From positions 37,675 to 101,674 of IMG/VR virus record IMGVR_UViG_3300005613_000015: a DNA stretch of 64,000 nucleotides; one strand, written 5' to 3'. The notes below the pieces were generated by a model. That model saw nothing but the letters and a program-made list of their open reading frames with translations. It had not been told where the DNA came from and did no database searches. A program made the translations under genes and the position numbers. Shown piece by piece: positions 2,426 to 55,901 of the stretch (its first letter is position 1; the number at the start of each line of letters is the position of its first letter). Origin of the DNA: a virus.

Positions 2426-5400
2426 ATGCACGGAACTGTTCGTATTTACAAAAACTTCGAAGAAAGCCCTGTTATAGAAGAACCCAACATGATTGTTGAT
2501 GGGTTCAAGGAGCATATTGTAGATATGATGACTTGGATTCCTGCTCCTTCAGAAGGATATTCTTCAGTCTCGGCGGGTTATAACGTTTCAAATTTTACGA
2601 TTCAGGCGATGGCTTTAGCTCCTTGCCAAGCCGCAGCGCAACGCGCAGACGCTCTTCTAGCGGTTTCTGGGTATACGGTTACTGGAGCGCCTTCAGGAAT
2701 AGGGCTCTCCTCATTAAAACGTTCTGGAGAAAGTTGGACGTATATGGAGGATATACCAAATAACTTTTTCAGTTCTGTTAACTCCCGCAGCGCAAGTAGT
2801 TTTCCGAACTCCATACTAAAAAATCCGACACTTTCAGCCTATACTTCATACTTAAAAAACGGAAAATTTAAAAATTACAGCATCAATCACTTTCTATCAG
2901 GCTCTTTCATAAATGAGCTTTTAGATTTATATGAACTTCCTAATTGGTCTATTCAAAGCTACCTTAGATATGACCCAAATTCAACAGAGTATGATGATAC
3001 TTATGTTGCTGGCTCCTGCGCTAGATATGCTTTAAGTTCTGTATCTGCACTATACTCGACACTATCCTCCGTTTACGCCGAAGAAGATGAAGGCGTGTTG
3101 TATATTCGTTCTTTTGCAACTAGTTCTGAAGGAGATACCTCTGGAGCCGTAAAACTCTCGCAGCAATTTTTATTTCCTACTACGGAGTTTGAGCCTTTAG
3201 AAACTGTAGCTTCTGCAACTAGTATTGCAGAGATTACGGCTCAGTTCAGTTCTGTTAGTGGGACTACTAGCCAAGCAGCGATTCACGTTAGTCTGCGAGA
3301 TGTTACAACAGGTGAGTCGTATAATTTTGCTTCTGGAAGTTACACAAGACACTCTTGGCAAGGGTCTGGAACTCCATTAATTATTCCGGCTAGTGCAAGT
3401 ACATCTGGAACAATCTCTACGTTTTTCAATATTCCAAACGATAAGCTTAAAAATAAGTTTGAGGTTGAGTTCGCGTTCTACTGTGATGCTTCCAGTAATC
3501 CTCTAGGAACATACTTTTGGAATGCTAACGTACAACAATGTGAGGGTTGGAAGTTCGGGAACATTTACGAAAATGCTGATATTCATAGGGTCGTTAACAA
3601 TGATTTTGCTAATCCAGGAATGTACTTCTATGCGTCCAGCATAGGTAGTTCCGTTAGTGCAACGGATTTAAGCAACGTAACATATGTATCCCAGGGGGTG
3701 AGGCTTAATCCTTTAAAGAAATACTCTTTTAACCCTATGCCTTATGGTTCCTGGGCTACTAGCTCCGATAATATGAGTTATGGGCTTATTAAATGGGCAA
3801 GCTCTAATGTGCAAGAACAGTACAGATATAATTTGCTTGCTACTATCGGAGCAGAAAATCTATTAGAAACACGCTTAAATTCGGTGAGTTATGTCGTAAC
3901 TCCCAACCTATCTCGTACTTCAACCTATAACGATACTACTGTTTATAAGGAAAAGATTTTACCAGAGGACTTGTTTTTAGAGATTTCCTCCCAGCAACAA
4001 AAGACAGGGACATTTAATGTTGTGGATGGAGATTCTTTTGACCTTCAATTCTCATTCCTTAACGAGTATGACAGTACTTTAAGCGCTGGAGTTTCAAAAA
4101 TTAATCTCTTAACCTCTCGTTACGGTACAGACGGAAATCAGAGATTTTATGATTTCGCAAATAATGAGTGGGCAATATCCTCAACTAACTCTGATTTATA
4201 TACTTCATCATTAATAGTTTCAGGTCCTGTAGGTCATTACGACGGTGCAGCAATTATAACCGATGGCCTAAACGGTATTATCGACGTTGAAAGTGATAAT
4301 ACTTATGAACTAATTTTAACTGTTGAAAGTGTAGGCGATACCCCCTCCTACATAAAAAATATTCGATGCAACTCGAAACCTGTTTCGGAAACTCCAACAT
4401 CCTACGGATTTAAGTCTAATCTTTCTGGTGCGGGATATCTTGATGTAGCTTGGCTATCTACTAATGATAATAGGAACACGTTATTCAGCAGTCTCGGGTC
4501 TTTGTTCACTCCTGATGCTCCATTAAATTACGGTAGTCAGGCGGGGTCAATACTTATCGAAGGTATGTTTGATGACCCAAGGTATGTTCACACGGAGGAG
4601 TCTGAATATGAAATATTCCTTATGAATTCGAATGTAGATTCGGCTTCAAACTATATCAAACTTCGGGCTACTCTAACAGATGCGGCTTTAAGTCTTTGTA
4701 CAGAAGAGATAGACAGTAACATTTTAACGTCTGAGGATTATATCAACAAACCACGTTTCGATATTATCGGACAACCGTTCTTTGAATATAACGGATTGAG
4801 TGGATTGTACGGACAAGGAGGATTGTTTGATATCTTTTTTAGAGCCCCTGGAGGTTCGGTAAATTATATTCCTGATACTTCGTATGAGTATTTTTCAGGG
4901 ACAGGTGGATTGAATATTCACTATCCTTTCGATGCAAGTGTAGGTAGTCTTTATGGAGGTTTTGAAACGTCCCCAAAGACAAAGCTTGGGTATACTTATG
5001 CATTAAGTGATATTAGCTTGCCTGTAAGTGCAACTGAAATGGCTTTTGGGTTTGAATATAACAGTAGAGAAACCTCCTCCTACCCGTCTGTAAATTGGCA
5101 AGCCGCTGCCACTACGAAGGATGGTAATGTTTTATGGTGGGATAGCGCGGTAAATAAATGGGAGCATTACGATATTAGCGCACAACCTCTTAATGCTTTT
5201 GACCATACTCTACAACCAGGAGATTTAAGCGCGGTTGTAAAAACGGCACTTAGTACGAAAGTAGATATCACTTCTGAACGCTTTGATAGCACTACAAAAA
5301 TTACCTTCTATATTGTTTGTACTGACTGGGCTTCAAATAGCGCAGCACAGCCTGTAGACGCTGTATTTATTACAAACTGGCGATTTTACATCGTCAACCA

Positions 5401-48984: not shown

Positions 48985-49203
48985 ATGAGACATATCAAAG
49001 CCGAGTATTTCGCGGAGGCTGGCGATGAGAAGACCGCAGGAACTATTATTATCCGTGGGGATGTGATTGTTTCTGTGTATAGTCTTCCTGGCTATTCCAA
49101 GCGAACTATGATTTTGACCGAACAGGGTCTTAAATTTTGCCTCAAAGGAAAGCCAGATGAGTTTATGCCTTCTGAGGAACTACTAACCGAGGCACTTGCC
49201 TAA
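48985..49203 (+). CDS. Hypothetical protein
   Basis: 72 aa ORF after a CTATTAC motif. Confidence 0.5.
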   Translation: MRHIKAEYFAEAGDEKTAGTIIIRGDVIVSVYSLPGYSKRTMILTEQGLKFCLKGKPDEFMPSEELLTEALA

Positions 49204-49213
49204 AGAAAATACC

Positions 49214-49414
49214 ATGACTGAAAACCCACAAGATAAATTTCTCTCCCAAATGCTAGAGGGTTACGAGAAGGGGCTGGAGGGCATCTCCAATTACATTGAG
49301 GAAACTCAAACCCAACTAGAGCAGGCAATTGCTCGTCGCGAAGAAATGATTCGTGATGTTGACGAGCTTAAGGCACTTCTTAGTCTTGAAGAAGAAGTGG
49401 CTGTTGCTGACTGA
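49214..49414 (+). CDS. Acidic coiled-coil hypothetical protein
   Basis: Likely start is ATG 49214. Followed by a terminator. Confidence 0.55.
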   Translation: MTENPQDKFLSQMLEGYEKGLEGISNYIEETQTQLEQAIARREEMIRDVDELKALLSLEEEVAVAD

Positions 49415-49435
49415 TAAACCAGTAATTCTGGATGT

Positions 49436-49470
49436 GCCTGCCATCGTTCGTGCGACGGCAGGCTTTTTTT
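49436..49470 (+). terminator. Rho-independent terminator
   Basis: Stem GCCTGCC...GGCAGGC followed by T7. Confidence 0.85.
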
Positions 49471-49579
49471 ATAGATACAGCGTTCGAATCGCCTCGCCCA
49501 GAGCTATAATAGACTGTCGCAAGAAGGGCTGCCCGAGAGGGTAGCTGCTCCGAATAAGACGCGGCTTCTTGTGGTATAT

Positions 49580-49656
49580 GCGCCCATAGCTCAATTGGTC
49601 AGAGCACTCGTCTTATATGCGATAGGTTCTAGGTTCAAGTCCTAGTGGGCGTACCA
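49580..49656 (+). tRNA. tRNA-Ile(UAU)
   Basis: Acceptor GCGCCCA/TGGGCGT, D-arm, anticodon loop CT-TAT-AT, T-arm CTAGG-TTCAAGT-CCTAG and encoded CCA. Confidence 0.9.
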
Positions 49657-49734
49657 AAAACATCTAGAGGCAGGATTTAGAGACATCTCTTCGTTCTTCG
49701 TGGTTGGCTCAATCCATAAGACCTCTTCTTACAA

Positions 49735-49819
49735 GCCTGGATGGTGGAATTGGTATACACATCAGACTTAAAATCTGACGCCGCGAGGCATACGGGTTCG
49801 ACTCCCGTTCTAGGCACCA
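49735..49819 (+). tRNA. tRNA-Leu(UAA)
   Basis: Acceptor GCCTGGA/TCTAGGC, anticodon arm TCAGA-CTTAAAA-TCTGA, long variable arm, GGTTCGACTCC and CCA. Confidence 0.95.
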
Positions 49820-49875
49820 AAACAACGCACTTCATAGAACATAATTAAACATAAAATAAAAACGGAGGGAAGGGA

Positions 49876-49904
49876 TTGATTGAAGCCCCTTCTTACGGTA
49901 TAAT
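49876..49904 (+). promoter_or_regulatory. sigma70-type promoter
   Basis: TTGATT-N17-TATAAT, with the ATG 6 nt after the -10 box. Confidence 0.7.
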
Positions 49905-49910
49905 ACTCAC

Positions 49911-51269
49911 ATGGAAGAAATCATCGAGCACCCGCTGTTTCTATTTCTATTACTAGGTTTCCCTTTTTGGGGGGGCATCGTTGCTATGATTGGAATTTGG
50001 TCCTTTGAGGGAGTATCCAGCATCTTTAAGGCAGTATACAACAAAGTATACAACAAAGTACGGGAAGATGTCTGGAAAGTACGGGAAGATATCTGGAAGG
50101 AAAAAGAAAGGGAGTATGAAAAAAAAGAAAGGGAGTATGAAAAAAAAGAAAGGGAGTATGAAAGAAGCTATCGAGAAAGATTACACCAACTGGAATCAAA
50201 ATATATTGGAAAAGGGGATTTTGAAAATCTAACTGACGGTAGTTGGAATTTCATAGTTAATGCCTTGAAGAAGGACGGGATTATTCAGCCCCCTTATAAG
50301 TTTCAACAATACTTGGACCGTTATGCTTGGACCCGAAAAAGGTTTATCGAAGCCTGCGATGAGAAGAAAAAGACCTTAGCCTTCACCGACTCTGAGTATC
50401 GAGCAGCATTTGAATCAATCGAGGAAGCAAAAAACACTCCCTTTCTTATTTCCGAGTATCATAAATCCCTAGAAAAAATTGATGGGAGTGATATTTCAAA
50501 GACCGTTAGTAAGTTCTTTGGTGGGTTTAGGAGTGAATTGAAAGAAGTTTCTCTTATTCGTGTTATTGATGGTGATACTTATGTATTTGATTTGGATGGG
50601 CACAGCATTAAGGTTCGTGGAATCGGCTTTGATTGTCCTGAACTAAATACTACTAATCACTCTTTTGTGGAGGCTTATGCTGAAGAAGCTACGGAATATG
50701 CTAGACAAATCCTATCTGATGCTAAAATCATGATTCGTATGGACAAACAAGCTCTAGACTTTGAAGACGGTCCCTTCGTCTTTGACCGATATGGAAGATT
50801 GCTTTGCCATATTTATGTTGATGGTAGCCTTCTTTCTGAGTCTTTGATTGGTGGGGGTCTTGCGAGAGTGGTTGGTAGTTTCCCTATCGAAAAAGATATC
50901 AAAAAATCTCTAAACAAGGCTCAGGTTGGAGCAAAATCAGAACGATTGAATTTGTGGTCGCTTCAATCTAACAACCCTGATAAACTGAATCCTATTGAGC
51001 TTGTGGATTCGCTTTCTAGCTCTAAAGAGGAAATGGGTATGTTGCTTCTGCGGGCTTTTCTTTCCTCGGTTGTCATGTCTAAAAATAGTAACATTATACA
51101 CGCCCCTGGCTGTACCTTTTCTGATAGAATTCTAGACCAAAATAAGCTCTCGGATGCAGAGGTGATTCAAATAATTAAAGACGTTTCTAATGCCCGAGCA
51201 TGTAAGAAGTGTGGGGGTGATGAAGTAGTTCAGGAAATGATTAACGAGGAACTTCAAGACCTAGAATAA
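49911..51269 (+). CDS. Membrane-anchored thermonuclease (SNase) with C-terminal Ada-like Zn-binding motif
   Basis: N-terminal TM. SNase motifs RVIDGDT, KVRGIGFDCPE, DRYGRLL.HIY, GLARV and AK....LW. C-term IHAPGC...RACKKC. Confidence 0.8.
   Translation: MEEIIEHPLFLFLLLGFPFWGGIVAMIGIWSFEGVSSIFKAVYNKVYNKVREDVWKVREDIWKEKEREYEKKEREYEKKEREYERSYRERLHQLESKYIGKGDFENLTDGSWNFIVNALKKDGIIQPPYKFQQYLDRYAWTRKRFIEACDEKKKTLAFTDSEYRAAFESIEEAKNTPFLISEYHKSLEKIDGSDISKTVSKFFGGFRSELKEVSLIRVIDGDTYVFDLDGHSIKVRGIGFDCPELNTTNHSFVEAYAEEATEYARQILSDAKIMIRMDKQALDFEDGPFVFDRYGRLLCHIYVDGSLLSESLIGGGLARVVGSFPIEKDIKKSLNKAQVGAKSERLNLWSLQSNNPDKLNPIELVDSLSSSKEEMGMLLLRAFLSSVVMSKNSNIIHAPGCTFSDRILDQNKLSDAEVIQIIKDVSNARACKKCGGDEVVQEMINEELQDLE
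50033..50163 (+). repeat. Three abutting in-frame tandem duplications
   Basis: (AGTATACAACAA)x2, (AGTACGGGAAGATRTCTGGAA)x2 and (AAAAAGAAAGGGAGTATGAAA)x3. Confidence 0.9.
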
Positions 51270-51294
51270 TACGGCTGAGAGAAGGAGTATATCA

Positions 51295-51939
51295 ATGACT
51301 GAATCTAAAGTAGAACTTTTAAACTATACCCCACAAGGAGACCTACTTGTTGTAAATGCAGCAAGATGTTCATTCGATAAACAGCATGATACATTCGATG
51401 AAGAAAAAGATACTCGCCTTATCAACTATCTGGCAAGAGAGAAGCACCTTCTCCCGTTTCGCCATCCTTCTGCTACTCTACGAATTTATGCTCCTATTTT
51501 CGTATTCCGTCAGCTCGGTAAGCACCAAGTAGGCTTTTCGTGGAGCGAGGTGAGTCGTAGATACATTTCTTCTGAACCTGAGTTCTGGGTTCCCAAAGAA
51601 GTTCGTAAAAAAGCAGACAATGTAAAGCAAGGTTCATCTGAGGAAACACTTCCTAATTCTTGGATTGTAGACTTTCAACAACAAAATAAATCATGTCTTC
51701 ATACCTACAATACTCTTCTTAGGGCTGGGGCATCACCAGAGCAAGCCCGTGCTGTTCTGCCACAATCCATGTATACGACCTGTGTGGTTACAGGAACGCT
51801 TCTGGGATGGCACCACCTCTATACTCAGAGGACGGAAGAACACACGCAGAGAGAGACGCAGGAGTACGCTCAGGAGATAGGGGATGTGATGTCTGAACTA
51901 TTTCCTAGAAGTTGGAAGGCTTTAAATGAAAATATTTAG
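51295..51939 (+). CDS. thyX: Flavin-dependent thymidylate synthase
   Basis: Motifs VVNAARCSF, H..PFRH, APIFV.RQ..KH...WSEVSRRY, EQARAVLPQSMYT and HTQRE. Confidence 0.93.
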   Translation: MTESKVELLNYTPQGDLLVVNAARCSFDKQHDTFDEEKDTRLINYLAREKHLLPFRHPSATLRIYAPIFVFRQLGKHQVGFSWSEVSRRYISSEPEFWVPKEVRKKADNVKQGSSEETLPNSWIVDFQQQNKSCLHTYNTLLRAGASPEQARAVLPQSMYTTCVVTGTLLGWHHLYTQRTEEHTQRETQEYAQEIGDVMSELFPRSWKALNENI

Positions 51940-52123
51940 ATTCTGTAAAGCAGTTATCAAATGGGCGTTGTCTGGCTTTAAGTTATCAAACCTGCATGAT
52001 AAGAGGATGGAGACTTGTTTTATCTGTACCCACTATAACAAAGGTAGGTGTGATATTTGTGGATGTGTATTACGAGCCAAGACGAGGATGTTTACTGAGG
52101 AATGCCCAATAAAGAAATGGTAA
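51926..52123 (+). CDS. Small Cys-rich protein
   Basis: Pattern R...C..C......C..CGC....K.......CP..KW. Confidence 0.6.
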   Translation: MKIFRFCKAVIKWALSGFKLSNLHDKRMETCFICTHYNKGRCDICGCVLRAKTRMFTEECPIKKW

Positions 52124-52169
52124 AAGGCAGTATCCTTTTGAGACTGCCGAATGGCTGAGATTGAACAAG

Positions 52170-52266
52170 GGAAGAGATTGGTAAGGGATTGAGGTTCGAT
52201 TCCTCTTTAGTATGGTACATGAACAGGCGACGGCCACCCGAAGGTTCGAGTCCTTCCTCTTCCACC
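52170..52266 (+). ncRNA. tRNA-like element (acceptor stem and T-arm, no canonical D or anticodon arm)
   Basis: GGAAGAG pairs with CTCTTCC-A-CC. T-arm GAAGG-TTCGAGT-CCTTC. A second internal T-loop hairpin GAGG-TTCGATT-CCTC is present. Confidence 0.45.
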
Positions 52267-52273
52267 TTACAAC

Positions 52274-52297
52274 GCACCCATAGCTCAATTGGATAGA
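52274..52297 (+). pseudogene. 5' fragment of an interrupted tRNA (Arg-like)
   Basis: GCACCCATAGCTCAATTGGATAGA comprises the 5' acceptor strand and D-arm, breaking off in the 3' strand of the D-stem. Confidence 0.85.
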
Positions 52298-52773
52298 TTT
52301 AGTATTCCATTATCAAACTCCCAATGGCAGTTTCTACATAATTGAATAACATTGTCTGGATGATTTACTTCTTCCAATAGAGCAGAGTCTGGGAACGACG
52401 AAACTGCTTTGATGTGGCAAAGTTCAACATGCTTATTATACCCACAGTTGGCGCAAGGTTTTGTTATAAGGTCTTTATTCCAACTACGACAAAAATTCCT
52501 TACATGAGAATGAACCCAAGAGGGGTGCTTCCCTTTTACTGATGTTTTTTCTCTGTATTCACCTAGAGTTTTCTTTTTAATCGCTGGTTGACAAGCATCA
52601 CACCAAGTTTTTCTAGTACTAATACCAACCCCACAAGTTCTACAAGAACCTTCTGGTTGACGATAGGAGTCTTTACCCCTTTGTTTGTTGGTATACTGTG
52701 CTGAACATGACCGAGAACAAAATTTTGGATTATCAGTTTTCTGGTTACAGTTTATACAAGTCTTATCTATCAT
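52285..52773 (-). CDS. HNH endonuclease with N-terminal Zn-finger motifs
   Basis: CINC...KFCSRSC and CRTC...WCDAC, then the HNH core CANCG...ELCHIK...N..DNVIQLCRNCHWEFD. Confidence 0.9.
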   Translation of the reverse strand: MIDKTCINCNQKTDNPKFCSRSCSAQYTNKQRGKDSYRQPEGSCRTCGVGISTRKTWCDACQPAIKKKTLGEYREKTSVKGKHPSWVHSHVRNFCRSWNKDLITKPCANCGYNKHVELCHIKAVSSFPDSALLEEVNHPDNVIQLCRNCHWEFDNGILNLSN

Positions 52774-52906
52774 AATATATGGGGGTATGGTGTAACAGAT
52801 AGCACATGACTCTTCTAAAGTCAGAGTGAGGGTGCAATTCCTTCTACCCCTACCATATATTTATATAGGTGAGTCGAACCTCTAACCTAATAAAAAAATA
52901 AAGCTT
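52298..52906. mobile_element. Candidate HNH + tRNA-Arg homing cassette inserted into a tRNA gene
   Basis: Lies exactly between complementary 5' and 3' tRNA fragments. Contains the HNH gene and an intact tRNA-Arg(UCU). Confidence 0.65.
52781..52855 (+). tRNA. tRNA-Arg(UCU), non-canonical D and T loops
   Basis: Acceptor GGGGGTA/TACCCCT, anticodon arm TGACT-CTTCTAA-AGTCA, T-arm GAGGG-TGCAATT-CCTTC and CCA. Confidence 0.85.
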
Positions 52907-52934
52907 TCTGGTTCGAGTCCAGATGGGTGTACCA
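52907..52934 (+). pseudogene. 3' fragment of the interrupted tRNA
   Basis: T-arm TCTGG-TTCGAGT-CCAGA followed by TGGGTGT-A-CCA. TGGGTGT pairs 7/7 (one G.U) with GCACCCA at 52274. Confidence 0.85.
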
Positions 52935-52978
52935 TCTACATAATACACAGCCAGCAACCTTGGCAAGAAGGAGATAAA

Positions 52979-54442
52979 ATGCAACCAAATATTGAAATTA
53001 GTTTAACGGTAAGAGGAGGTATGGAGTCTAAAATCTCCGTTCCTCAGAATCTAAAATGGATTAACGAAGGACATCTTCGTTATATTGAGTATTGTGAAAA
53101 CCTTTTGGGGAGTCTTGTCCATGTGTTTATGATTAGGCACACTGGTTTTGATGCTACCGAAGTTATCGTCAATCTTTCTAATGGAGTCGTTGAAAATGGT
53201 ATTATATACTTTACTGACTACATGGTGAAAGTAGATGACCAGATGGAAAGGTATACTGGCCGTCATGTAATCCGACCCCGAGGAATGTTTGCTGACCGAT
53301 TTGTGGTTGGACCTGATGCAGAAAAGGTCCGCAACTACCAGCATATTCCCACTAAAAAAGAGCCTTCTTGGGCATCGAGCCAAGCCCATGACCTTATTGT
53401 ACAATATCGTGATAGGAGAGAAGATTCTTATGGTCCTTATAAGCCTTTTTGGAATAAGTTCCATTCCCTCTCGGATTCCCACGGAGGGGCTGGAGTCTCT
53501 CCTTACTCGAACTGGCTGGGTTCCCCTCTAGGATACCAAATTCGTGCTCTTGAATTCTATGGAGAGGTTTGTCGTTCTCCTCTAGCCTGCATGAATAGCC
53601 GAGGACAAACTCTTCGTCTGGATGAGCAATACTGGCTGGGAAGAACCCCTCAGCACGAACTTCCTCAATTCAATTACAGAGATGAATATGATGGTTGGTG
53701 TCCTTATGAGGAGTGGCTTCTTCGTTATGAGGCTCACGACTACACCCACCTCTGGAGAACAATTCGTGCTGCATCTGAACTAGCCCACTGGAACCCTTTT
53801 GCTAGAAAGTTCCTTCTTTGGGTTTGGAATGATTGTACGATGTGGTTACTTGGAAAGAAAGGAAATACTTCTACCAATTCTCTTTTCTGGTCACTAACGA
53901 AACTTGCAAGAACTACTGCCCCCAACCAAACCGCATCTTGGGGTGGTCGAGGACTATATCATGTAATTCGATGCTTCCTCACCGTGAAGCAGTATCTTTC
54001 AGTTCGTGAACAGAACTATTTCACAAACCAGTTCCAAAAGACTCTTCGGCATATTGCGAATGAGTATGGTGTGTGCCACGGAACTAAGTCTGCTGGTGCT
54101 TGGGGTCAGGCTGTTTGGGACCACTTCGGAGACACAGAGGTCGCTAGAGGATTTGAAACCCAACTGCTTGCTAGTGTGTATGAACCTCTAGGACTAATGG
54201 ACCTCCTAGACAAGTACAACACGACATTCCCAGAGGAAGTTCCTAACTGGTTTGAAGCAAATAATCCTGTAAACAATTACGGTGGAGAACTCTATCCTCC
54301 TTACCGTGCTCTTTATGTAAATCGAGTAAGTGGATATCCAAGTGCTGAAAAGCTGGTAGAGATGTCTGCTGGCAGAAATATTAACGGGTCTTCTCAAGAT
54401 TTAGACTGTCATATGAATACAGCATATCAAAATGAACTATGA
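52979..54442 (+). CDS. Hypothetical protein (aromatic-rich, 487 aa)
   Basis: SD AGGAG and a CTACATA motif upstream. No recognised motif. Confidence 0.6.
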   Translation: MQPNIEISLTVRGGMESKISVPQNLKWINEGHLRYIEYCENLLGSLVHVFMIRHTGFDATEVIVNLSNGVVENGIIYFTDYMVKVDDQMERYTGRHVIRPRGMFADRFVVGPDAEKVRNYQHIPTKKEPSWASSQAHDLIVQYRDRREDSYGPYKPFWNKFHSLSDSHGGAGVSPYSNWLGSPLGYQIRALEFYGEVCRSPLACMNSRGQTLRLDEQYWLGRTPQHELPQFNYRDEYDGWCPYEEWLLRYEAHDYTHLWRTIRAASELAHWNPFARKFLLWVWNDCTMWLLGKKGNTSTNSLFWSLTKLARTTAPNQTASWGGRGLYHVIRCFLTVKQYLSVREQNYFTNQFQKTLRHIANEYGVCHGTKSAGAWGQAVWDHFGDTEVARGFETQLLASVYEPLGLMDLLDKYNTTFPEEVPNWFEANNPVNNYGGELYPPYRALYVNRVSGYPSAEKLVEMSAGRNINGSSQDLDCHMNTAYQNEL

Positions 54443-54458
54443 GGCTCTATAATAAAAT

Positions 54459-54902
54459 ATGGCAAACCAAGAAAGACTAGACGAGACTTACATGGCGATG
54501 GCTGAGAAGCTTTCCGAGCTTTCTCACGCAGAACGAGCAAAAGTAGGTGCTTTGATTGTAAAGGACACTCATATTATTGCAGAGGGCTATAATGGAACCC
54601 CAGCAAGGTTCCCAAACAGATGTGAGGATTATGATTTCTTGGGATACTATCGTACGAAACCAGAAGTGCTTCATGCGGAGTCTAATGCTATTGCTAAAAT
54701 CGCTAAGTCTACAAATAGTTCTCTTGGTGCCACTTTGTATACTACTTTGGCTCCTTGCGTAGAGTGTTCTAAGTTAATCATTCAGGCAGGAATTTTCAGA
54801 GTAGTTTACAAAAATACTTACCACAGTACTGGAATAGCTTTGCTAAAAAAAGCAGGTATTCAAGTTGATTTCCTTACTAGAGAATCTAAGGGGCCAGCAT
54901 AG
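54459..54902 (+). CDS. dCMP deaminase
   Basis: Motifs KVGALIV, GYNGTP, LHAESNAI and PCVECSKLIIQAGI. Confidence 0.92.
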   Translation: MANQERLDETYMAMAEKLSELSHAERAKVGALIVKDTHIIAEGYNGTPARFPNRCEDYDFLGYYRTKPEVLHAESNAIAKIAKSTNSSLGATLYTTLAPCVECSKLIIQAGIFRVVYKNTYHSTGIALLKKAGIQVDFLTRESKGPA

Positions 54903-54968
54903 CTCAATTGGCAGAGCAATTGACCTGTAATCAATAGGTTTTCGGTTCGAGTCCGAATGCTGGCTCCA
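54893..54968 (+). tRNA. tRNA-Thr(UGU) with C33
   Basis: Acceptor GCCAGCA/TGCTGGC, anticodon arm ATTGA-CCTGTAA-TCAAT, T-arm TTCGG-TTCGAGT-CCGAA and CCA. Confidence 0.9.
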
Positions 54969-54990
54969 CTTTTACCCTACATAAAATAGT

Positions 54991-55427
54991 AAAAGTCAAA
55001 AGAAGGTAGACCTCTTCTAACAAAAGTCAAAAGATGCCTCTCAAATCCGGTAAAGGTAAAAAGGCTGTATCAGCCAATATCAGCAAGCTAAGTGATGAGG
55101 GATATCCTCACAAACAAGCTATTGCTATTGCTCTTGATAAGGCGGGTAAATCCCGCAAGAAGATGCGTAAGAAAGTCAAAGAGAGTTATGTAACTCAAGG
55201 AGCCAAACCTAGTGAGTTTGGTCGCACCTTTGATAACGCATGGAAACCGGATTTGAATGTAGGATTTAAGGTTCCTACAAAAGTCAAGAGCATGAATGAT
55301 GTTTCTGAAAAGTATAAACCAGTTTCAAATAAACCACGAATGCGAAAATCTAAAAAGAGATTTTCAAAAACATAAAGTGGTAAATGAGAAAAGCCAGTTG
55401 ATTTTTCACAAACATAAAGTCAAAAGA
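54991..55427 (+). repeat. Dispersed AAAGTCAA(A)AGA repeats
   Basis: Copies at 54991, 55022, 55172, 55279 and 55416. Confidence 0.6.
55034..55375 (+). CDS. Small basic phage protein
   Basis: MPLKSGKGKKAVSANI...HKQAIAIAL.KAGKS, a common small phage protein pattern. Confidence 0.65.
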   Translation: MPLKSGKGKKAVSANISKLSDEGYPHKQAIAIALDKAGKSRKKMRKKVKESYVTQGAKPSEFGRTFDNAWKPDLNVGFKVPTKVKSMNDVSEKYKPVSNKPRMRKSKKRFSKT

Positions 55428-55481
55428 CTGACCACTCTATTATAGTCCTGCAACGCCCAAAATGTTCCTGTAATCTCAAAA

Positions 55482-55901
55482 ATGGAAAAAAATAACTACA
55501 TCCTCAAAATCCGTATGGACGAAAAGGAGGTTGAGACATTTGCAAAGTTGACGCCCCTAATCAATCTTTCTATTAGTGAAATCGAAGCAAACATGGTTTC
55601 CAATCTTCTTGGTTATCAAACTGCAAGAGAGTTAGTTCTTCGTGGGTTTAAGAAGAATCCGTATCTACAAAATGCTTTTATTGCTCTTTCCTTTTTGTAT
55701 ATCACAAGAGAGGATAAAGAGACATTTGAAGATTTCTGGAGTAGAATCGTTTTTACAGATAAAGATGTTGAGCGCAGAGTGAAAAAGATTTTCAACATTA
55801 GCATAGATGAGGTAGAAGGATTGAGTAAACTTCAACTCGAACTAATGTGGATGTTGGAGACAGAAAAGGACGAATGGGACGATACCGTGAGTGGTAAGTA
55901 G
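55482..55901 (+). CDS. Hypothetical protein
   Basis: 139 aa ORF flanked by 14-bp direct repeats. Confidence 0.55.
   Translation: MEKNNYILKIRMDEKEVETFAKLTPLINLSISEIEANMVSNLLGYQTARELVLRGFKKNPYLQNAFIALSFLYITREDKETFEDFWSRIVFTDKDVERRVKKIFNISIDEVEGLSKLQLELMWMLETEKDEWDDTVSGK

Follow-up and report, generated by a model that had tools for sequence, protein, structure and literature searches.

Introduction

Mobile endonuclease genes are known from several settings in and among transfer RNA (tRNA) genes, and these were compared with an interrupted tRNA-Arg(UCU) gene of a phage. The gene lies in the final 64 kb of a 101.7-kb IMG/VR virus record (IMGVR_UViG_3300005613_000015; completeness estimate 93%). 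This whole stretch of 64,000 nucleotides was analysed and is called the window. Inserted in the gene are an antisense HNH endonuclease gene and a second, complete tRNA-Arg(UCU), called the cargo. Judged from sequence comparison, the insert is probably a homing-endonuclease cassette without an intron; it would be specialised for the tRNA-Arg(UCU) genes of phages, disrupting the resident gene and bringing its replacement.

Group I introns in the anticodon loop of bacterial tRNA genes encode endonucleases, e.g. the Synechocystis tRNA-fMet intron enzyme I-Ssp6803I. In these introns, as proposed for the window, the anticodon region is targeted and insertion there makes the occupied allele immune. 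The window differs from them in having no ribozyme, in restoring function by a second tRNA gene, and in leaving the host gene permanently dead.

T4 SegB is a free-standing GIY-YIG homing endonuclease in a tRNA gene cluster (PMC2330249; PMC13096335). SegB recognises a 27-bp site including a conserved 11-bp T-psi-C motif, and drives the inheritance of its own and neighbouring tRNA genes in mixed infections (PMC2330249). Of the cases studied it comes nearest to the window enzyme, as a phage homing endonuclease that sits among tRNA genes, uses tRNA-gene sequence and spreads tRNA genes. Unlike the window enzyme it belongs to another nuclease family, lies between genes, is not flanked by split halves and carries no dedicated replacement for a destroyed gene. 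In T5, HNH endonucleases of the tRNA region have been described as F-TflI, F-TflII and F-TflIV (PMC2330249, PMC10644984). Homologues of the window protein at 30-38% identity were found in Felix O1-like phages, with the HNH gene next to tRNA-Ile, and in Erwinia phage Ep030. The T5 and Felix O1-like enzymes share with the window protein the HNH type and the position within phage tRNA clusters, but are described as free-standing genes between tRNA genes. We know of no nested split-tRNA architecture or replacement logic reported for them.

Protein genes can be split by homing-endonuclease insertion and rescued by split inteins ('fractured genes'; PMC2677866). There, as here, an essential gene is split by a homing-endonuclease gene and the rescue is built in; fractured genes are rescued by protein trans-splicing, whereas the window abandons its halves and supplies a whole spare gene. 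In synthetic Cleave-and-Rescue or home-and-rescue drives, a nuclease destroys a needed gene and a linked copy restores its function (PMC10592828). These are engineered Cas9 systems in eukaryotes; the resemblance of the window is functional only, and resistance of its rescue copy is only putative. No description of an endonuclease and replacement-tRNA cassette nested in a split tRNA was retrieved by literature search. The locus is an instance of a widespread homing-endonuclease variant that is apparently undescribed.

Structure of the interrupted tRNA gene

The locus consists, from 5' to 3', of the resident tRNA 5' half, the antisense HNH gene, the cargo, a spacer and the resident 3' half. The resident tRNA-Arg(UCU) is interrupted by 605 nucleotides (nt; 52298-52902), and about 22 nt of the tRNA is gone. 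Alignment to the intact genes of L007 and L008 (see below) identified the missing part as the rest of the D stem 3' strand, the entire anticodon arm and the start of the variable loop.

The 5' fragment (52274-52297, plus strand; tRNA positions 1 to about 23) reads GCACCCA TA GCTC AATTGGATA GA. It comprises the acceptor 5' strand, the D stem 5' strand, the D loop and 2 nt of the D stem 3' strand, and was assigned by exact 24-mer matches and by synteny with relatives. The 24-mer was found in 31 other IMG/VR contigs, in each as the 5' end of a complete tRNA-Arg (anticodon mostly UCU, in some ACG). A chance match is excluded.

The 3' fragment (52903-52934, plus strand) is 88-96% identical to the 3' ends of the L007, L008 and L013 genes and reads GCTT TCTGG TTCGAGT CCAGA TGGGTGT A CCA. 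These are variable loop (GCTT, 52903-52906), T arm (52907-52923), acceptor 3' strand (TGGGTGT, 52924-52930), and discriminator A with CCA (ACCA, 52931-52934). The acceptor strands TGGGTGT and GCACCCA pair at 7 of 7 positions, G1.U72 being a wobble. A first-pass annotation, made from the letters of the window alone, had described the acceptor strand and D arm of the 5' fragment and the full acceptor pairing; the former agreed base for base and the latter was confirmed. Its T arm, acceptor strand and ACCA of the 3' remnant also stand, with the start moved from 52907 to about 52903, where homology resumes in the variable loop.

Relatives of the phage were found by means of ThyX (62-69% identity), and share a dCMP deaminase as well (up to 77%). 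The window and these relatives also arrange their tRNA genes alike, as Ile(UAU)-Leu(UAA)-(Asn)-Arg(UCU). Four of them (L008, L030, L013 and L007) have an intact syntenic tRNA-Arg(UCU), the first 24-26 nt and 3' acceptor strand with ACCA of which match the window halves. The broken gene was thus verified as tRNA-Arg(UCU), with both halves derived from one gene, as had been annotated.

The 3' fragment has the acceptor strand and ACCA of the phage's relatives. Its T stem is TCTGG/CCAGA, against TCAGG/CCTGA in all four relatives (a compensated pair), and is that of the intron-bearing tRNA-Arg genes in L060 and L208. An exact search with the 3' half found no second occurrence of this acceptor/T-stem combination in IMG/VR. 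A chimeric 3' half of this kind (recipient acceptor, donor T arm) would be the expected leftover of a crossover within the tRNA; the pattern is suggestive of such an event, not proof of it.

Endonuclease gene

The HNH gene (52285-52773, minus strand) encodes 162 amino acids (aa). The N-terminal part of the protein has two zinc-ribbon motifs of the CxxC...CxxC type, and the HNH domain is C-terminal. The gene was assigned using Pfam (HNH_2, 30.9 bits, cut-off 21, E value 2.4e-7, residues 107-156), PHROG (family 1271, 'HNH endonuclease', E value 3.2e-8), invariant residues and an AlphaFold2 (AF2) model. Seven residues invariant across 58 homologues are all kept in the window protein: the catalytic His/Asn/His (H120, N141, H150), and the CxxC metal-binding pairs that would frame a beta-beta-alpha core (C107, C110, C146, C149). 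The model was confident, with a pLDDT of 90.8, and placed a strand-strand-helix at residues 116-154. The best Foldseek matches were HNH nucleases, all weak with E values above 0.01: Gme HNH 4h9d (probability 0.96), McrA, TagI, Cap5 and T5 SciA. Solved structures, searched by sequence, gave no match.

The stop codon, TGA, is read from the strand opposite TCA (52285-52287, within GCTCA). Together with the three sense codons before it (L S N), it lies antisense to the D arm of the 5' fragment. The homologues P0001, P0003 and P0004 (62-96% identity; 96% for P0001) likewise terminate in ...LSN-stop, antisense of TCAATTGGATAG. The gene is thus placed otherwise than the free-standing SegB gene, lying inside the resident tRNA-Arg gene and overlapping it.

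No ribozyme was found: Rfam gave no match to one, Intron_gpI included, at an E value of 10 or below in 49000-55500. There is also no room for one, because the HNH gene (489 nt), the cargo (75 nt) and the spacer fill the 605-nt insert. With no ribozyme core and with the exons short of the deleted part of the tRNA, the insert is not a group I intron.

Cargo tRNA and spacer

The cargo (52781-52855, plus strand) was identified as Arg (tct) by ARAGORN and scored 57.3 bits on the Rfam tRNA model (gathering threshold 29). Its minimum-free-energy fold is a cloverleaf. It has G1.U72, A73 and an encoded CCA, and its D loop (AACAGATA) and T loop (TGCAATT) are atypical. It starts seven nt past the HNH start codon, on the opposite strand. 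Scanning for promoters and terminators gave matches at chance level throughout; one plus-strand -35/-10 candidate, ending 7 nt 5' of the cargo, was not relied on.

The cargo is the sole tRNA-Arg(UCU) of the 101.7-kb genome, which has four tRNA genes in total, and AGA makes up 24.6% of the genome's Arg codons (second most used). It would therefore do the work of the tRNA-Arg(UCU) that was resident in the lineage. The over-called N-terminus of P0003 is an antisense translation of the same cargo tRNA, identical at 28 of 30 residues, against 71-76% for the HNH protein proper. It follows that the cargo is constrained far more strongly, and that it travels with the nuclease. The exact cargo anticodon arm was matched in IMG/VR only in the window's own record.

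The cargo had initially been called recoded. Recoding fails as a general rule: in two sister loci, L045 and L166, the cargo is an ordinary tRNA-Arg with the GGATAGAGC D arm found in target genes. The DNA 5' of the 5' half and that 5' of the cargo are about 80% alike in L045, both with TATAAT-like boxes, which suggests that this cargo may have arisen when a resident tRNA-Arg was duplicated along with its promoter.

Rewired cargo tRNA-Arg genes are common (L034, L036, L039, L040, L051, L064, L137, L139, L140, L168, L189 and L214). Their plan is a 7-bp acceptor, an 8-nt connector replacing the D arm, an anticodon arm, about 20 nt with GTAATTGGA, and a T arm. They were missed by ARAGORN, and those searched scored 31-44 bits on the Rfam tRNA model. 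One is from a cultured phage (L214, about 1405-1485; Erwinia phage Ep030, OQ603357), where a rewired tRNA-Arg(UCU) lies directly 5' of a 38%-identical HNH gene.

The spacer (52856-52902, plus strand; 51 nt from the cargo end to the T stem) contains a hairpin at 52866-52889. Within the hairpin, the motif TCGAACC (52874-52880) is complementary to GGTTCGA (52910-52916) of the downstream T arm. A 50-51-nt spacer with this anti-T-arm motif is also present in L045, L166 and L189 (shuffle p 0.001-0.01). The motif stands 30-36 nt 5' of the 3' half in all four loci. It could be a mask for the orphan T arm, or a recombination footprint. The insert thus has the contents given in the first-pass annotation, namely a reverse-oriented zinc-finger HNH gene ending in the antisense of the broken D arm, a complete tRNA-Arg(UCU) and a small hairpin, and its description as a non-intron element was borne out.

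Recurrence of the architecture

Searching with the HNH protein yielded 823 homologues at E values of 1e-10 or below. Loci compared were 154 (74 from IMG/VR and 80 from JGI metagenomes), or 155 with the window. A UCU or CCU anticodon arm was present within 250 nt of the HNH gene in 106 of the 155. Nested loci were searched for as orphan 5' (acceptor and D arm) and 3' (T arm and acceptor) pieces flanking the HNH gene, with complementary acceptor strands. The HNH gene lies within a split tRNA in about 11 of the 74 IMG/VR loci and about 22 of the 80 metagenome loci, always antisense and never on the sense strand. Reversed-acceptor decoys, used as a control, gave fewer matches, which were visibly non-tRNA. 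The suggested search for homologous HNH genes near tRNA-Arg(UCU) and flanked by tRNA halves therefore had a positive outcome, with recurrence in many phage loci.

This recurrence bears on a technical explanation, in which the locus is an assembly chimera, or in which tRNA fragments and an unrelated free-standing HNH gene came together by chance in a tRNA cluster prone to rearrangement. The surroundings are indeed a rearrangement hot spot, with orphan T-arm pieces, a displaced ThyX module and a 103-nt tract 100% identical to one in L033 (all described below). But both inner junctions are present in independent assemblies (those of P0001, P0003 and P0004), the nested order and strand are repeated in about 30 loci from different samples, and in relatives a single syntenic gene accounts for both fragments. 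Recurrence of the architecture in independent assemblies excludes an assembly artefact, and this explanation as a whole is given next to no credence.

The recurring loci take three forms. In the first (form A), group I introns occupy the anticodon loop of tRNA-Arg(UCU) (exons CTT|CTAA), with the HNH gene antisense in a peripheral loop. The Intron_gpI model of Rfam was matched across the HNH gene in L070 (54 bits) and L180 (62 bits), and at E values of 5e-6 to 9e-5 in L201, L208 and L060. In form B (L056/L198, L199 and L205/L206), an intron-free anticodon-loop cassette carries the HNH gene and a cargo tRNA-Arg, and the host anticodon stem is retained. The cassette ends of L056 and L199 are 9-nt inverted repeats (TTAAAATAT ... 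ATATTTTAA) that lengthen the host anticodon stem into a long helix. In form C, to which the window belongs, the 5' fragment is cut anywhere between the D loop and the anticodon loop. The HNH frame of form C continues antisense into the tRNA remnant up to a stop, and the cargo is always a tRNA-Arg, with anticodon UCU or rarely CCU. Given breakpoints that vary among loci, the anticodon arm appears to have been lost secondarily.

On the HNH tree the three forms do not separate but are interleaved. The window groups with L045, L166 and L189, without strong support; these four have in common the order of elements, the spacer length and the anti-T-arm motif. These comparisons make the cassette kin to the group I introns with an antisense gene of this HNH family, a spare tRNA standing in for self-splicing.

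The closest relative of the phage, L033, has a 58%-identical HNH gene and a different, non-canonical, rewired tRNA-Arg(UCU) cargo (reverse complement 2897-3560). It retains 11 nt (GCACCCCATAG) of the tRNA-Arg 5' end after tRNA-Leu (reverse complement 2090-2110) and has no 3' half. The halves can therefore be lost. A second tRNA-Leu(UAA) abuts the HNH gene of L033.

Mobility and age of the cassette

Related cassettes were compared together with their flanks. The cassettes of L056 and L199 (about 625 nt) are 99% identical, in host tRNA halves that are clearly different genes and in unrelated flanks. Between L045 and L166, identity of about 95% begins at nt 1 of the 5' half and runs through the CCA, and the DNA outside is unrelated. 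L189 has the inner junction of L045/L166, with three acceptor differences, each compensated on the opposite strand. Near-identical cassettes in unrelated flanks show that cassettes of this kind move between unrelated genomes. The only border sequence shared between unrelated carriers is the tRNA gene itself.

Both inner junctions of the window cassette are old. The outer halves are undecayed (5' fragment 24/24, acceptor 7/7, T arm and CCA perfect), and the proteins of the nearest relatives are 60-77% identical. Undecayed halves suit a long-dead fossil less well than an insertion into a functional gene that happened fairly recently. The family members carried by L033 and L013, and the distance of the closest copies retrieved with DNA context (see below), count against a recent landing.

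Preservation of the halves might instead reflect a role as RNA, in which an acceptor-paired, anticodon-less, tRNA-like molecule would serve as a decoy for tRNA-targeting defences, as a processing handle or as a substrate for rejoining. About 20 loci have fully complementary acceptors, an intact T arm, discriminator and CCA, despite compensated acceptor differences, and the conserved spacer motif is complementary to the T arm. Complementarity is automatic, however, if insertions land in working tRNA genes. The break positions differ among loci, L033 lacks halves, and between L045 and L166 the halves have diverged about as much as the remainder of the unit (5 differences in about 67 nt; about 5% overall). 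In the window, no decoding tRNA could be made from the halves, because the anticodon arm and half of the D stem are absent. The two together lack tRNA positions 24 to 45 or so, including the anticodon arm, and are thus not a split tRNA of the Nanoarchaeum type. No RtcB gene was found in the genome, which counts against rejoining. The first-pass suggestion that the halves are rejoined or act as an anticodon-less decoy therefore gained no support, and a role as RNA is considered very improbable. A reading of the halves as similar to transfer-messenger RNA (tmRNA) was also tried and rejected, since G3:U70 and a tag reading frame are both absent and ARAGORN called no tmRNA.

A second possibility is that the window holds an immobile relic of a mobile group I intron. 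A second tRNA-Arg(UCU) would have arrived, the ribozyme and anticodon arm would have decayed, and the HNH protein may now be inactive or repurposed. The same HNH family does occur antisense in group I introns at the anticodon loop of tRNA-Arg(UCU), and every cassette keeps the antisense orientation. The 5' breakpoints range from the D loop to the anticodon loop, as progressive internal deletion would give; the halves of L033 are almost entirely lost; and no close relative has this copy in a new context. Against decay in place, the window halves are intact at the protein divergence noted above, the HNH reading frame retains all invariant residues, and sister intron-free cassettes are demonstrably mobile. 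An intron is the probable origin of the cassette, and as an origin this is compatible with a homing cassette; the two accounts compete only over the present activity of this copy. As an account of its present state, the relic is considered unlikely.

Proposed mode of homing

The preferred reading, a homing cassette that disrupts tRNA-Arg(UCU) and replaces it, would work as follows. In a mixed infection, the HNH enzyme would nick or cut a tRNA-Arg(UCU) gene that has no insert, at or close to the anticodon arm, the presumed recognition region. The break would be repaired from the cassette-bearing genome. Crossovers are proposed to fall in the conserved D-arm and T-arm segments, because the tRNA is the only homology between unrelated phages, and the acceptor stem of the recipient would be retained. 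The disrupted gene could no longer be cut and AGA decoding would be supplied by the cargo, which is why insertion is proposed to be cheap for the phage.

Several observations weigh against this reading. No near-identical genome with an empty site was found, the relatives with an uninterrupted tRNA-Arg being distant (proteins 60-77% identical). The exact empty allele that had been predicted was not found in IMG/VR by exact searches with the cargo anticodon arm and the 3' half; the nearest intact genes differ by the compensated T-stem pair. The closest copies of the window element retrieved with DNA context are at most 62% identical, which does not favour recent homing. L013 has a member of the HNH family beside tRNA-Ile and also an intact tRNA-Arg(UCU) of the kind presumed to be the target; members of the family must differ in specificity, or else tolerate or control cutting of their own genome. 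Since L033 also has an HNH gene and a cargo, this lineage may have harboured the element for a long time. Recombinational repair would have only short homology arms, of about 24 and 32 nt. Nothing convincing was found as a promoter or ribosome-binding site of the HNH gene, promoter-like matches being at chance level. Finally, the canonical cargo of L045/L166 makes recoding an unlikely general means of immunity.

Other routes to an empty site were followed. A DNA search of an isolate-phage collection for close relatives gave matches to ThyX only, and no close relatives were found in IMG/VR by means of the 487-aa open reading frame (ORF) downstream of the split tRNA. ThyX is located elsewhere in the relatives identified by it, and no empty-site junction was obtained from them.

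A wider form of the preferred reading is held tentatively, with some doubt. In it, the element is a natural 'home-and-rescue' drive, using the near-universal D and T arms of tRNA-Arg as homology arms, hopping between unrelated phages and switching between intron and cassette forms, with a cargo that is sometimes rewired. It is the near-universality of the D-arm and T-arm homology that is proposed to let one element hop between unrelated phages. The recipient would keep its acceptor stem and receive the inner arms of the donor, a pattern to which the chimeric 3' half of the window points, and the switching between forms would go in both directions.

Neighbouring sequences

A 103-nt tract with two orphan T-arm-like pieces (52170-52272, plus strand) ends 1 nt before the split tRNA. 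It is 100% identical in L033 (reverse complement 2503-2605), L134 and L135, and the adjoining DNA is 70-75% identical. The orphan pieces are GAGG TTCGATT CCTC, and GAAGG TTCGAGT CCTTC plus CTCTTCC ACC. In L033, the first 23 nt or so of the tract form the end of a small ORF. It probably represents a scar, or else a stretch exchanged recently, next to the nuclease gene. As a candidate tRNA, 52172-52271 was rejected: it was unsupported by ARAGORN and Rfam, and its fold was no better than those of shuffles.

The ThyX-DUF6171 module lies inside the tRNA cluster here (51295-52123) and elsewhere in the relatives; the module has therefore moved. In L107-L120 it is found between homologues of the window genes at about 32-33 kb and 34-35 kb. 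Between tRNA-Leu and ThyX is a 452-aa ORF (49911-51269) with a staphylococcal-nuclease domain and KEREYEK repeats. The 487-aa ORF (52979-54442), just 3' of the split tRNA, had no Pfam or PHROG match.

Significance

Annotation is affected directly, as the halves escape tRNA finders and annotators, and so do the rewired cargo tRNAs of sister loci. The HNH enzymes are candidate sequence-specific nickases for conserved tRNA-gene sequences. The three forms offer a comparative system for the gain and loss of mobile introns. On the preferred reading, the cassette would be a natural precedent for cleave-and-rescue drives, and would help to explain exchange hot spots in phage tRNA clusters. To our knowledge, homing endonucleases in essential genes have been thought to persist only by means of introns or inteins, or by lying between genes. 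To break the gene and bring a spare would be a third solution, one that uncultured phages apparently use often and that seems able to replace the intron solution, and be replaced by it, in evolution.

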